Below, one piece after another: positions 9,489-17,707 of a DNA stretch of 64,000 nucleotides. The notes below the pieces were generated by a model. That model saw only the letters and a program-made list of their open reading frames with translations, was not told where the DNA came from and searched no databases. The translations under genes and the position numbers were made by a program. The stretch spans positions 1,340 through 65,339 of the forward strand of contig CAIKXV010000029.1 of NCBI GenBank assembly GCA_903831455.1. The letters are read 5' to 3'. This DNA comes from an uncultured Pseudomonadota bacterium. GTDB lineage: Bacteria > Pseudomonadota > Gammaproteobacteria > Burkholderiales > CAIKXV01. Within the stretch, counting starts at the first letter, position 1. Every line of letters begins with the position of its first letter.

Positions 9489-11459
9489 GTGCCTCCGGGG
9501 CCTGGTCGCCCGGGGCCACCCGCCGGCTCGCCGCAGCCACGCGCGCGCCTCCCCGCAGAGCCTCGGCCCGTGGACCGCTCGACACTCAAAGCCCAGTTCG
9601 CCCGTATCGGCGTCGCGGTCCTCGCGGGCGCCCTGCTCATGGCTGCGAACGCCTTCCTCTACTGGAAGGCGCTGCCCGGGGACGAGGCGGCCGCGCGCGA
9701 GATCGGAGCCCAGTTGCGCGCGCTGCAGCGGCTGGACTCGCGCTGGGAAGGCGTGCTCGTGCGCGCCGCGACCGACCCCGGGTCCGGAGCCCAGGCCGCC
9801 GCCGCGCTGGCGCCCGCGGCCAGCGCGGCGCTGGAATCGATCGGCCAGAGCGCCGGTCGCCTCGACTCCGCGGCGCTCGACTCGGGGCTGGCCGGACTCG
9901 GTCGCGCGTGGCGCGACAGGATCGCTCTGACCGAGCGCCACCTCGCCGACGCGGGATTCGTCGCCACCAACCTGCCGATGGTCCGCGCGGCCGCCGAGCG
10001 CTACACGGATGCACTGCGCTCGACCCGGGGAGGGGGCGTAGCCGCCCAGGCGCGAGGTGCCGCGCTCGAGCGGGCGGCAGGCCAGTTGTCGGCCGAGTTG
10101 CTCGCCTACGCCGCCGATCCGTCCGAGGCGCACGCCGCCCGGGTACAGTCGGCGCTCGCGCAACTGTCCGCAGGATCGGCTGGCGAGCCTGACCGCCGGG
10201 TGGAGGAAGCCCGGGCCGCGCTGACCGGCCTGGCGGCGGCCGTCGCCGGTCGCCGCCAGGCCATGTCGCAGACGCTGGCCTCCCTCTCGGCTTCGCCCGC
10301 CGGGCGACAGCTCGAGCGGGTGTCCTCCGACTTCGACCAGGAGCGGCTGGCGAAGGCGGCCTCGCAGCAGACCTACGGTCGCATCCTGCTCTGGAGCGCG
10401 ACCGCGCTGCTCGTCGTGCTCGCGCTGGTGGGATGGATGCTGCTCGGCAGCTATCGGGTGCTCGATCGGGCCAACACCGAACTCAGTGCCGCCAACGAAT
10501 CCCTGGAGGAGCGCGTCGCCGAGCGCACCCGTGAACTCACCACGGCACTGGCCGAACTCCAACAGTCCGAAACCCAGCTGATCCAGTCGGAGAAGATGTC
10601 ATCCCTGGGCCAGATGGTCGCCGGCGTCGCCCACGAGATCAACACGCCGCTCGCCTACGTGAAGAACAACCTGGCGATGGTGGAGGACCGGGTCGTCACG
10701 CTGCGGGATCTGGTCGAATCGTTCGCGCGGCTGCTGAACATGCTCCAGGCGGAGGACACGCCCGACGACGAACTGCGGGCCCAGTTCGCCCGGGTCAGCT
10801 CCGAGATCGCGCAGTTGCGCGGCGAGGATAGCCTCGGCGAACTCGGCCACCTGGTGCGCGATGGCCTGCACGGGATCGACCAGATCTCCGAGATCGTGGT
10901 GAACCTGAAGGACTTCAGCCGCCTCGATCGCCAGAAGATGCAGGCGTTCGACGTGAACAAGGGCCTGGAGAGCACCCTGCTGCTCGCCCGGCACGTGCTC
11001 AAGCAGGTCGAGGTCCGCTGCCAGTTCAGCCTGCTGCCGCCGGTGGTGTGCGCGGCCTCGCAGATCAACCAGGTCTTCCTCAACCTCATCACCAACGCGG
11101 CGCAGGCCACCGAAGGGCGGCGGGGCGTGATCACGCTGACCACGCGCGCGGTGGGCAAGAGCGTGATGGTGGAAGTGCAGGACAACGGTCGCGGCATCCC
11201 CGCGCACGTGCTGCCGCGCATCTTCGATCCCTTCTTCACCACGAAGGAAGCGGGAAAAGGCACGGGACTGGGACTGTCGATCTGCTACAAGATCATCGAC
11301 CAGCATCATGGCAAGATCATGGTGATGTCCAAGCCGGGAGAGGGCACGACCTTCACCGTGCTGCTGCCGGCCCAGGGCACCGCGGCCGACGTCACGCCAC
11401 CGCCCGTCGTCCCCACCGAACTGGCCGGACAGCCTCCCGGCTCGCCCACCCCCGCCTGA
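9489..11459 (+). CDS. Membrane sensor histidine kinase, paralog 1 (TM, ~250-aa Ala-rich helical extracytoplasmic region, TM, coiled coil, HisKA, HATPase)
   Basis: H-box SEKMSSLGQMVAGVAHEINTPLAYV; N-box LNLITNAAQA; G1 VQDNGRGI; F FDPFFTTK; G2 GTGLGLSICYKII. Hydrophobic segments IGVAVLAGALLMAANAFLYW and ILLWSATALLVVLALVGWMLLGSY. The start is uncertain (GTG 9489 or GTG 9570). Confidence 0.85.
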   Translation: MPPGPGRPGPPAGSPQPRARLPAEPRPVDRSTLKAQFARIGVAVLAGALLMAANAFLYWKALPGDEAAAREIGAQLRALQRLDSRWEGVLVRAATDPGSGAQAAAALAPAASAALESIGQSAGRLDSAALDSGLAGLGRAWRDRIALTERHLADAGFVATNLPMVRAAAERYTDALRSTRGGGVAAQARGAALERAAGQLSAELLAYAADPSEAHAARVQSALAQLSAGSAGEPDRRVEEARAALTGLAAAVAGRRQAMSQTLASLSASPAGRQLERVSSDFDQERLAKAASQQTYGRILLWSATALLVVLALVGWMLLGSYRVLDRANTELSAANESLEERVAERTRELTTALAELQQSETQLIQSEKMSSLGQMVAGVAHEINTPLAYVKNNLAMVEDRVVTLRDLVESFARLLNMLQAEDTPDDELRAQFARVSSEIAQLRGEDSLGELGHLVRDGLHGIDQISEIVVNLKDFSRLDRQKMQAFDVNKGLESTLLLARHVLKQVEVRCQFSLLPPVVCAASQINQVFLNLITNAAQATEGRRGVITLTTRAVGKSVMVEVQDNGRGIPAHVLPRIFDPFFTTKEAGKGTGLGLSICYKIIDQHHGKIMVMSKPGEGTTFTVLLPAQGTAADVTPPPVVPTELAGQPPGSPTPA

Positions 11460-11484
11460 CCCCCGCCCGCCCCCCCGAAACGAC

Positions 11485-15536: not shown

Positions 15537-17707
15537 GCGAGCAGGGTCGCATCGACAGGGGGCGAAACGACGTGCTGCAGCCTGGTCGCATCGGCAAGTA
15601 CCGCATCGACGCGCTGATCGGCAGCGGCGGCATGGGCAAGGTGTTCCGCGGCTACGATGAATCGATCGAGCGCGCGGTCGCGATCAAGGCCATCAGCCTG
15701 ACCGGCATCCCGACGAATGAACTGGCCGGGACTCTGGACCGCTTCCGTCGCGAAGCCCAGGCAGCGGGCCGGCTGATCCATCCGAACATCGTGCAGGTCT
15801 ACGAGTACGGCAAGACCGGCGACCTCGCGTTCATCGCGATGGAACTGGTCGCGGGCCGTTCGCTGCACGACGACCTCGCCGCGCGGCGACGCTACACGCT
15901 GCGCGAAGTGCGCAACCTGATGACGCAACTGCTCGACGCGCTCGAGCATTCGCATCGACAGGGGGTCGTCCATCGCGACGTCAAGCCCGCGAACATCCTG
16001 CTGGGCGATGACAACCGGGTCAAGCTGGGCGATTTCGGCATCGCGCGCCTGGAATCATCCAACCTGACGCAGAGCGGGCAGATGTTCGGCACGCCCTATT
16101 ACATGTCGCCCGAGCAGTTCCTGGGCCAGCCGGCGTCGGCGGCGACCGACATCTACTCGGCCGGCGTGATCGCCTACGAGTTGCTGACCGGGGTGCGTCC
16201 CTACACCGGCGGCACCCCGCAGATCATGCGGCAGGTGCTCGACCCCGAGATCGTCCCCATCCGACCCTCGCGGCTGAACGCGAACGTGGCACCGGCGCTC
16301 GACGATGCGGTCATGTCCGCGCTCGCCAAGCCGCGCGAGGATCGCTACTCGTCGGCCGCCGAGTTCTCGGCCGCATTCGCAGCCGGCGTGATCGACAGCC
16401 TCGCGCTCACCGGCGAGGACATCGGGCAATCCGACCTCGACGCGGCGGCAGGATCGCCCGCGAATACCGTCGCCGCCTTCACCGGCATGCCTTCGCCGGC
16501 GATCTCGCTCTCGCCGACGCGCCAGGCGCCCCCCGCCCTGCCGCCGGCGGCAACCCACGGCTCGATCGCCACCCGCGGACGCAGCCCCGCGGCCCGTGAC
16601 GTGCCGCGTCCGGCGGTCTCGCCCGCTCCGCCACCATCGCCTCCGCCGCCCCAACCTGCCGCGGCCCCGGCGATCGGCGCCGGGCAGCGGCTGGCCGCGA
16701 TGCGCCGACAGGGCGCACCGTCCCCGGGTTCCACCTTCCCGCCGCCAGCGGCCAGCCGCGCCGGGACCACCCTCGCACCCAGCGCCAAGAAGGCGCGCCT
16801 GCTGGTGGTCGACGACGAGACGCGCATCCTGAACGCGCTGAAATCGGTCTTCCGCCAGGACTTCCACGTCTTCGCCACCAGCGACTGCCAGCACGCGCTG
16901 GCGTTCATGGCGCGCTACCGGATGCACGTGATCATCAGCGACCAGCGCATGCCGGGCATGACCGGCGTGGAACTGTTGCGCAAGGCGCGCGTCCTGTCGC
17001 CAGGCACCATGCGCATCCTGCTCACCGGCTATGCAGACCTCGCCGCGATCGCCGGCTCGATCAACGACGGCGAGATCTACCGTTTCGTATCCAAGCCGTG
17101 GGACAACAACGAGCTGCGCGGCATCGTGCGCGAGGCGGTGTCGATCTCCACCGAACTGGCCGAGCTCGGGGTCCAGCCCCAGCACGTCGCCGAGCCGCAG
17201 ATCGCACAGTCGATACTCGTGGTCGACGCCGACTCGGGCCTCTACCGCTCGACCCGGGAGCTGCTCACCGACGTCGGACCGGTACGGCATGCCGCGTCTC
17301 CCGAGGCCGCGATCAGCGAACTGGAAGCCGGCGACATCGCGGTCGTGCTGTTCGACCTCGATGCCGGACGGGCGAACGACAACGCCAACCTGATCAAGAT
17401 CCTCAAGCAGGACTATCCGCAGCTCCTCGTGATCGTGGTCACCGAGGCTTCGGACTCCGACCTCATGATCGGCCTGATCAACGAGGCCCGGATCTTCCGC
17501 TTCATCAACAAGCCGGTCGCCCTGCGCGTGCTGCGCACGCACCTGATCGCCGCGCTCGAGCGCGCGCAGGCTTTTGCCGTCGAACCCCAGCTGGTCCGGG
17601 TCCAGGCTCCCGAGCCCACCGCCGCACCGCGCCTCGCACTGCCCGAGGGATGGCTCGGCCGGCTGCGCACCCTCGGCGAGCGCATCGGCCTGGGTCGCCG
17701 CCGCTGA
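15533..17707 (+). CDS. Hanks-type Ser/Thr protein kinase fused to two C-terminal receiver domains, paralog 2
   Basis: Kinase motifs: GSGGMGKVF, VAIKAI, HRQGVVHRDVKPANILL, LGDFGIA, GTPYYMSPE. A Pro-rich linker follows. REC1: RLLVVDDETRIL..VIISDQRMPGMTG..ILLTGYAD..FVSKPW. REC2: ILVVDADSG..VVLFDLDAG..VVTEASD..FINKPV. There is an ATGA overlap with HK2. Confidence 0.85.
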   Translation: MSEQGRIDRGRNDVLQPGRIGKYRIDALIGSGGMGKVFRGYDESIERAVAIKAISLTGIPTNELAGTLDRFRREAQAAGRLIHPNIVQVYEYGKTGDLAFIAMELVAGRSLHDDLAARRRYTLREVRNLMTQLLDALEHSHRQGVVHRDVKPANILLGDDNRVKLGDFGIARLESSNLTQSGQMFGTPYYMSPEQFLGQPASAATDIYSAGVIAYELLTGVRPYTGGTPQIMRQVLDPEIVPIRPSRLNANVAPALDDAVMSALAKPREDRYSSAAEFSAAFAAGVIDSLALTGEDIGQSDLDAAAGSPANTVAAFTGMPSPAISLSPTRQAPPALPPAATHGSIATRGRSPAARDVPRPAVSPAPPPSPPPPQPAAAPAIGAGQRLAAMRRQGAPSPGSTFPPPAASRAGTTLAPSAKKARLLVVDDETRILNALKSVFRQDFHVFATSDCQHALAFMARYRMHVIISDQRMPGMTGVELLRKARVLSPGTMRILLTGYADLAAIAGSINDGEIYRFVSKPWDNNELRGIVREAVSISTELAELGVQPQHVAEPQIAQSILVVDADSGLYRSTRELLTDVGPVRHAASPEAAISELEAGDIAVVLFDLDAGRANDNANLIKILKQDYPQLLVIVVTEASDSDLMIGLINEARIFRFINKPVALRVLRTHLIAALERAQAFAVEPQLVRVQAPEPTAAPRLALPEGWLGRLRTLGERIGLGRRR

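Follow-up and report, generated by a model that had tools for sequence, protein, structure and literature searches.

Two tandem pairs, each a sensor histidine kinase with a receiver-bearing Hanks kinase

We analyzed a 64,000-nucleotide stretch of DNA (below, the window) from an uncultured Pseudomonadota bacterium placed in the Burkholderiales (CAIKXV01; GenBank assembly GCA_903831455.1, contig CAIKXV010000029.1, positions 1,340 to 65,339 of the forward strand). Within positions 9489-17707, four consecutive open reading frames (ORFs) on the plus strand alternate between a sensor histidine kinase (HK) that is membrane-bound and a soluble Hanks-type Ser/Thr kinase (STK) that continues into two receiver (REC) domains, in the order HK1-STK1-HK2-STK2. 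ORF calls and Pfam agree with the coordinates and strand that an earlier note on this DNA had given for the four genes: HK1 at 9489..11459 (656 amino acids, start uncertain by ~30 codons), STK1 at 11485..13578 (697 amino acids), the paralogous HK2 at 13575..15536 (653 amino acids from a GTG at 13575, with an alternative ATG at 13632) and the paralogous STK2 at 15533..17707 (724 amino acids).

HisKA and HATPase_c are above the Pfam cut-offs in HK1 and HK2 alike (HATPase_c 2.3e-29 at 11058-11375 and 3.4e-29 at 15102-15419, respectively). A motif search recovered in each protein a HEINTP H-box, an NLITNA N box, a DxGxG G1 box, an FDPFFT F box and a GxGxGL G2 box, in agreement with the complete catalytic core described before, and it places the phospho-accepting histidines at His382 of HK1 (10632-10634) and His368 of HK2 (14676-14678). 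The best NCBIfam matches of this HK class are AtoS, ZraS and NtrB-like; assignment to the T2SS_HK subfamily was rejected, as the scores of 229 and 203 bits lie far below its cut-off of 450. The H-box His and the N box are ~150 residues apart in both proteins (10632-11100 in HK1 and 14676-15140 in HK2), a spacing longer than expected for HisKA kinases; the extra helical stretch is common to the NCBIfam T2SS_HK model.

In each HK, two hydrophobic segments flank a periplasmic region of ~240 amino acids (HK1, 9606-9662, residues 40-58, and 10383-10439, residues 299-317; HK2, 13713-13769, residues 47-65, and 14433-14489, residues 287-305). No domain had been recognized there at first; the HK1 sensor in fact passes the Pfam cut-off for DAHL, the double all-helical domain (PF19443, E 5.6e-13; the cut-off is 38 bits and HK1 scores 49.6 to 53.8), and the match at 9684-10376 sits between the two transmembrane segments. 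The sole match of the HK2 region (13770-14432) is a colinear one to DAHL that, at 17.7 bits, stays under the same cut-off, and the HKs of relatives are likewise annotated DAHL. Judged by this weak match, the HK2 sensor is probably a diverged copy of the HK1 DAHL domain.

The N-terminal parts of STK1 and STK2 match Pkinase (~1e-51; 176 bits against a cut-off of 31.7) and their C-terminal parts match Response_reg over two stretches (~1e-28), and a hydrophobicity search found no transmembrane segment in either protein. The kinase domains, at 11527-12276 in STK1 (delimited by Pfam, AlphaFold2 and Foldseek, with K43, HQD138-140 and DFG158) and at 15599-16351 in STK2, contain the Gly loop, VA[VI]K, DFG and A/SPE motifs, and the motif search thus agrees with the full Hanks set claimed for them. 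The catalytic Asp, Lys and Asn, the DFG and the αC Glu are invariant in 61 homologues. The catalytic loop reads HQDIKPAN in STK1 and HRDVKPAN in STK2. The HQD of STK1 (window 11896-11904) is common to its orthologues P0004 and P0024; an RD loop is found in STK2 and in every single-copy relative, together with an activation-loop LTQ motif that the STK1 clade has lost. Because HQD keeps the catalytic Asp, STK1 is predicted to be a non-RD kinase and not a dead one or a pseudokinase, and the HQD together with the loss of LTQ suggests that this copy has changed its mode of activation.

In fold, the kinase domain is closest to PknB (5u94; TMt 0.90, root-mean-square deviation 1.7 Å by Foldseek), and its closest sequence matches in the PDB are PknA, PknB, StkP and PknE; no solved PDB chain joining a kinase to receivers was found. 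Residues R10, L33 and D76 of PknB form its back-to-back dimer interface, and the matching PknB entries are L33D/L33E interface mutants. In a HMMER alignment the three positions correspond to K22, I45 and E91 of STK2, whose counterparts in STK1 are K13, I36 and D82, and the Lys (K13) and Ile (I36) positions are invariant across the family. The LTQS of STK2 has its T and S at the activation-loop sites T171/T173 of PknB. A relationship to the defence kinases MADS6 and PglW was rejected, with similarity confined to the kinase domain and scores under the cut-offs.

In both STKs the kinase domain is followed by a disordered linker, which lies at 12358-12567 in STK1 and is Pro/Ala/Ser-rich in STK2. 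TRF detected a tandem repeat in the STK1 linker (12426..12527; ~6.6 copies of a 15-nucleotide unit) that encodes TGAL[H/R/A] pentapeptides with one Thr per unit. The unit sequence and number vary among relatives that are 90-92% identical (P0002, P0003 and P0124), and the repeat is absent in the orthologues of two other lineages (L001 and L002, see below). Its Thr residues may form a multi-site autophosphorylation ladder, or the repeat may be just a slippage-prone spacer.

Pfam and AlphaFold2 both resolve the C-terminal regions into two receiver folds, as the earlier note had proposed. REC1 (12586-12957 in STK1 and 16796-17167 in STK2) has the canonical set of a DD pair, the acceptor D (SDQRMP), T (LLTGY) and K (KPW), invariant in the 61 sequences; the key residues are D373/D374, D416 (12730-12732), T444 and K467 in STK1, with the acceptor at D470 (16940-16942) in STK2. 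Its class matches are NtrC, AtoC and FixJ-like. The acidic pocket of REC2 (12997-13365 and 17210-17575) was correctly called weaker, and this holds family-wide: there is a single acidic residue after β1, the acidic pair is missing in every member, and the acceptor position of relatives is D, E, A or other, with T and K mostly retained. The REC2 domains of the window keep the acceptor Asp (D553, 13141-13143; D608, 17354-17356) together with T and K. Since REC2 is degenerate throughout the family, each STK probably has one phospho-acceptor, D416 or D470 in REC1, rather than two.

An AlphaFold2 model of full-length STK1, built on the 61-sequence alignment, gave confident folds for the kinase, REC1 and REC2 (mean pLDDT 76, kinase pLDDT ~90), with the 70-residue linker and the C-terminal tail disordered. 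Modelled alone, the REC-REC region (pLDDT 86, pTM 0.74) consists of two (βα)5 folds, and its top 10 PDB matches are all PleD with both receivers aligned (E ~1e-15); for one domain at a time, the best matches are receivers from adenylate cyclase and HD-domain regulators. The NCBIfam PleD model also aligns colinearly with stand-alone REC-REC relatives (see below). Membership in the PleD family itself was rejected, as Pfam finds an N-terminal Pkinase in place of a GGDEF domain. The RpfG/NosR REC-HD-GYP family (NF053512), the IMG label of relatives, was rejected as well: the match (186-187 bits against a cut-off of 400) covers the REC part only, and Pfam detected no HD domain in the STKs.

Overall, the two modules are about half identical in their catalytic parts and most diverged in their sensors, as had been estimated by eye. 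HK1 and HK2 share 42% identity overall (sensor 32%, core 53%), and STK1 and STK2 share 49% (kinase 53%, linker 36%, REC1 66%, REC2 45%).

Conserved pairing, duplication and origin of the module

The HK + STK-REC-REC module is widespread in environmental Betaproteobacteria. The best 120 of thousands of database matches all combine Pkinase with Response_reg, and the names given to relatives, if any, are 'protein kinase' or 'RpfG family response regulator/Ser-Thr kinase'. A scan that used one genome per species returned 19 STK-REC-REC loci (two of them, L018 and L019, only partly matched or assembled), whose carriers are mostly Burkholderiales-type metagenome-assembled genomes (MAGs) and include Gallionellaceae, Usitatibacteraceae, Betaproteobacteria bacterium GR16-43 (complete genome) and the cultured Ramlibacter albus. 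In this survey of neighbourhood conservation, every locus that extends upstream (18/18) has an HK homologue immediately upstream of the STK, bearing out the pairing seen in the window, and the same adjacency is found in four further metagenome or MAG loci. After clustering of the flanking ORFs, the HK and the STK were the sole genes common to all 18 loci, and no recurring PP2C, FHA or other candidate partner was present across those ORFs.

The two partners also share their history. The HK core and the REC-REC region gave congruent neighbour-joining trees, with each pair forming its own clade. Mutual information was calculated over 55 pairs for DHp positions of the HK against α1 positions of REC1, with REC2 as a control; the top pair joins HK H+12 to REC1 α1, where specificity residues are expected, but REC2 columns scored comparably and the signal is not separable from phylogeny.

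HK1-STK1-HK2-STK2 recurs in the same liv...hemF setting in two other MAG lineages (L001 and L002), and all other genomes scanned have a single HK/STK pair. The paralog groups are sister clades in the neighbour-joining REC-REC tree, which together with the congruence of the trees indicates that HK and STK were duplicated together, as one unit, in an ancestor of the window, L001 and L002 lineages; the duplication is thus old, as the earlier note supposed. With HRD, LTQ, KNS in the HK and LKS in REC1, pair 2 is like the single-copy ancestors, and pair 1 is derived (HQD, KNN and LKAL). The differences between pairs at HK H+11/12 (KNN vs. KNS/KSS) and in REC1 α1 (LKAL vs. LKSV) are shared with the respective orthologues. 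Insulation of a duplicated pair would leave coordinated differences of this kind, although covariation does not separate them from shared ancestry.

The fusion itself is younger than the receiver pair, a step that the earlier note had missed. The same scan recovered loci from Gammaproteobacteria, Chlorobiales and Bacteroidota (for example, Psychrobacter, Moraxella, Solimonas, Zhongshania and Alkalilimnicola) in which an HK is followed by a stand-alone REC-REC protein of ~315 amino acids with two Response_reg matches and nothing else in Pfam. The H-box SLGQMVAGVAHEINTPLxYVKN is common to the HKs beside stand-alone REC-REC proteins and those beside STKs, and the sensors of the former are dCache, DAHL, PilJ-like or CBS; one HK core and REC-REC region combined with different sensors points to an old cassette that has been reused for many inputs. 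An exhaustive search with the REC-REC region returned 429 representative clusters at E <= 1e-30, and the best 150 of these comprise ~20 kinase fusions (620-810 amino acids) and ~130 stand-alone proteins (~300-340 amino acids, without an output domain). Pkinase is the sole N-terminal addition that we found in the family. These sequence comparisons show that the module arose by N-terminal fusion of a kinase domain onto an older stand-alone REC-REC regulator.

Receivers of the same SDQRMP...KPW subfamily lie C-terminal to (GGDEF-)EAL domains in Ideonella and Rhodocyclales (L076, 6612-8849; L077, 7077-8810; L078, 7143-8816), and in L078 a PP2C-Pkinase fusion gene is located just upstream. The placement of the receivers behind the output domain, described earlier as the reverse of the usual layout, is therefore real but not unique to the STKs, and the EAL-receiver proteins indicate that receivers of this type tend to follow an output-first, receiver-last order. 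A different arrangement is found in a Gammaproteobacteria MAG (L074, DATBLZ010000073, 3866-9215), where a 429-amino-acid REC-Pkinase protein is followed by an HK and then by a 408-amino-acid REC-containing protein; a further locus (L066) resembles it, but is cut by the contig end. The separate REC-Pkinase gene beside an HK in L074 indicates that the kinase association arose more than once.

Gene order in the window is ilvD, a YcgR-like PilZ gene, livKHMGF, HK1-STK1-HK2-STK2 and then the convergent hemF and purD. The livKHMGF-type branched-chain amino-acid ABC transporter genes (4582..9446, plus strand; Pfam) lie directly upstream of HK1, with 42 nucleotides from the end of livF (9446) to the earliest possible HK1 start. 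The link to the liv genes is stronger than the earlier note claimed. The liv genes recur upstream, and hemF with purD downstream, in 7-8 of the loci; three additional loci from metagenomes or MAGs (with two relatives, P0113/P0090 and P0097) are such that the DAHL-HK begins 8-12 nucleotides past livF and the STK ~10 nucleotides past the HK. Inside the block, the 25-nucleotide gap between HK1 and STK1 (11460-11484) and the ATGA overlap of HK2 and STK2 (15533-15536) are as reported before. The GTGA overlap of STK1 and HK2 (13575-13578) is conditional on the GTG start of HK2, with the in-frame ATG at 13632, an equally possible start, leaving a 53-nucleotide gap instead. The AGGAAG ahead of the ATGA overlap gives STK2 the one clear Shine-Dalgarno sequence among the four genes. 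The liv genes and the HK/STK block are probably one transcription unit, or at least conserved neighbours; a promoter and terminator scan of 4000-18500 returned no plus-strand signal, which is uninformative at 70% GC.

The remainder of the window consists of housekeeping genes by Pfam scan, and among 34 of the larger ORFs outside it (small ORFs were not scanned) there is, leaving aside the HK/STK locus, no PP2C, FHA or DNA-binding response regulator gene, as had been stated. The YcgR-like gene (PilZNR + PilZ; 2912-3922, plus strand), between ilvD and livK, is of the c-di-GMP-binding flagellar-brake type. An APH-family phosphotransferase gene (26400-27494, minus strand) stands divergently beside lptD-surA-pdxA. 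We take this position to be typical of an AmgK-type MurNAc/GlcNAc anomeric kinase of cell-wall recycling.

A proposed His-Asp to Ser/Thr cascade and the alternatives to it

We propose that each HK/STK pair is a two-component system in which a Hanks-type Ser/Thr kinase serves as the response regulator, a model that we consider rather probable. The HK would read a periplasmic small molecule through its DAHL domain, and the signal may be an amino acid or a related nutrient given the conserved position of the module past livF. The HK would then autophosphorylate on the H-box His (His382 in HK1, His368 in HK2) and pass the phosphoryl group to the canonical REC1 of its partner, at D416 of STK1 or D470 of STK2; the concordance of the HK class (AtoS/ZraS/NtrB) with the REC1 class (NtrC/AtoC/FixJ) supports such a transfer, and the HExxT motif suggests that the HK also dephosphorylates the receiver. 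REC1 and the adaptor-like REC2 could form a PleD-like stem whose dimerization is altered by phosphorylation, and dimerization of the stem would pair the PknB-like N-lobes of two kinases, leading to trans-autophosphorylation and to phosphorylation of substrates. STK2, the ancestral-type paralog, is an RD kinase that has Thr/Ser where PknB has its activation-loop sites, and STK1, as the derived non-RD kinase, probably needs no loop phosphorylation. The comparisons above establish the domain content, the invariance of catalytic and acceptor residues, the folds, the conserved HK-STK pairing, the history of the duplication and the origin by fusion; what we infer is that phosphate is transferred, in which direction and with which sign control runs, and what the signal and the substrates are.

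Independent of the fusion, other operons also couple HKs and receivers of this family to Hanks kinases, an example being L074 with its REC-Pkinase protein and HK, which argues for the model. A number of observations weigh against it. The inter-domain arrangement of the full-length STK1 model is not confident (pTM 0.47), so that no kinase-receiver interface can be claimed from it, and the superposition on PleD over both receivers is moderate (TMq 0.49-0.54, root-mean-square deviation ~7 Å, ~275 columns), the query being a predicted monomer. The REC2 control columns gave z-scores comparable to those of REC1, and the covariation is not separable from phylogeny. Neither a substrate, an FHA protein nor a PP2C phosphatase is encoded nearby. 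One relative has another upstream context (riboflavin genes), and the adjacency to liv could be inherited synteny. Finally, because stand-alone REC-REC proteins have no output domain, the REC-REC region must be able to signal by protein contact, and the kinase could be a modulator of that signal.

This last point leads to the alternative that survives best, which we nevertheless regard as unlikely: the REC-REC stem would be the true output, acting through contact with an unknown partner, and the kinase would serve feedback or integration, tuning the His-Asp pathway by Ser/Thr phosphorylation of its own linker, the receivers or the HK. The excess of short proteins without an output domain among the best 150 representatives (~130, of ~300-340 amino acids) fits this idea, and the Thr-bearing linker repeat of STK1 could serve as an autophosphorylation ladder. 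Phosphorylation of response regulators by Ser/Thr kinases is, moreover, well documented (PMC12471899). Against it, the kinase lacks a sensor domain and hence brings no independent input, and its strictly conserved catalytic machinery and PknB-type interface positions suit an effector regulated by dimerization. Pkinase being the only N-terminal fusion seen in the family likewise speaks for the kinase as the output.

The earlier note had envisaged branched wiring, in which both HKs phosphorylate the receivers of both STKs and REC2 is a second acceptor, giving two kinases and four receivers (2 x 4). The retention of D553 and D608 with T and K in the REC2 domains of the window, and the likeness of the REC1 paralogs (66% identical, with similar α1 helices), would allow for it. 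The proposal is weakened by the family as a whole, as REC2 has no second Mg-binding acidic residue in any member and its acceptor is E, A or other in relatives. In addition, the pair-specific residues in the HK (KNN vs. KNS/KSS) and in REC1 α1 (LKAL vs. LKSV) are shared with orthologues, and the HK and REC trees are congruent with each pair in its own clade. We consider branched wiring improbable.

It is very unlikely that one or both kinases are pseudokinase scaffolds, or that the adjacency is inherited gene order with the HKs signalling elsewhere: the HQD of STK1 in place of HRD, the lack of a substrate gene linked across loci and the lack of a called promoter or terminator (uninformative at this GC content) would fit, but the catalytic Asp, Lys, Asn, DFG and αC Glu are invariant in 61 sequences, the pair is kept where all other neighbours change, and the HK and REC parts co-diverge.

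Returning to the proposed cascade, in which the Hanks kinase is the output, a fuller version can be outlined that we hold only tentatively and that, taken as a whole, is rather doubtful. A DAHL-HK encoded in the liv operon would sense amino-acid or nutrient status, the PleD-like stem would dimerize, and the PknB-like kinase would phosphorylate targets in metabolism or transport. The lineage with the duplication would have a second, insulated channel, whose non-RD kinase bypasses activation-loop control.

Relation to known signalling systems

His-Asp two-component systems and Hanks kinases are the two main phospho-signalling systems of bacteria, usually described as running in parallel and said to meet only through cross-phosphorylation of regulators. 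The module probably links both in one cascade. If the receiver directly controls the Hanks kinase, the module would be a hard-wired junction between the two systems, and would offer a simple system for studying how a Ser/Thr kinase is switched, as the Asp input could be imposed by BeF3-, acetyl phosphate or point mutants. Experiments are feasible because two carriers are in culture, Ramlibacter albus GTP1 and Betaproteobacteria bacterium GR16-43. In evolutionary terms, the family shows a new output bolted onto an existing sensor/regulator pair, and a duplicated pair diverging into RD and non-RD kinases.

Bare combinations of kinase and receiver domains have been noted before. In a literature search that did not cover response-regulator censuses, we found neither a characterized member nor a description of the HK + kinase-REC-REC module, in line with the earlier note, which knew of no characterized member.

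The closest parallel for the receivers is PleD of Caulobacter crescentus (REC-adaptor REC-GGDEF), in which, as in the STKs, a degenerate receiver comes after a canonical one. Phosphorylation activates PleD by driving its stem to dimerize, so that two catalytic domains come together. Unlike PleD, the STKs have a Hanks kinase instead of GGDEF, and the catalytic domain is N-terminal instead of C-terminal; sequence identity is ~20%. For the kinase domain, PknB, PknA and StkP are closest in both sequence and fold, with the full catalytic set and equivalents of R10/L33/D76 kept. These PknB-type kinases are membrane receptors with PASTA or other extracellular sensors, whereas the STKs are soluble and have a receiver pair fed by a separate HK; STK1 differs further in being non-RD (HQD).

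Two-component output in Ser/Thr phospho-signalling is also known from REC-PP2C regulators such as RsbY of Bacillus cereus, which works with RsbK. The STKs differ from RsbY-type regulators on each count, since the output of the latter is a phosphatase, the REC is single and N-terminal, and the target is a partner-switching module. In eukaryotes, the state of a receiver controls a Ser/Thr kinase in the yeast Sln1-Ypd1-Ssk1 pathway to Ssk2/22 and in plant ETR1-CTR1. Those cascades employ separate receiver and kinase proteins, non-covalent contact and an HPt relay, whereas here the receiver and the kinase are in one polypeptide and there is no HPt. If the cascade proposed for the liv operon is correct, it would be the first bacterial counterpart of a eukaryotic receiver-controlled protein kinase.

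DrdR of Xanthomonas campestris is an orphan regulator with an N-terminal pseudo-receiver, a C-terminal functional receiver and no DNA-binding domain (PMC13507683). The STKs are similar in having one functional and one degenerate receiver and no DNA-binding domain; a DrdR-type identity was rejected, as the receiver order is reversed, a cognate HK is adjacent and a kinase is fused. On the input side, the DAHL domain of Tlp10 in Campylobacter jejuni is reported to bind several classes of small ligands (Elgamoudi et al., 2021, via PMC9796306). There the domain feeds a chemoreceptor and here HK1, so that ligand specificity is not transferable, and the match of HK2 is weak. In the actinobacterial GlnH-GlnX-PknG system, an amino-acid signal from outside the cell reaches a soluble Hanks kinase via a membrane protein (summarized in PMC11032199). 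Given the linkage to liv, a functional analogy is possible; unlike the STK module, GlnH-GlnX-PknG has no His-Asp step and no receivers, and the sensing parts are not homologous.

Thus, receiver-regulated enzymes, Hanks kinases and, in automatic annotations, the bare domain combination are already known. What appears to be new is the predicted arrangement of the whole: a two-component system with a Hanks kinase as its output, carried on a PleD-like double-receiver stem and often located at the end of a liv operon.

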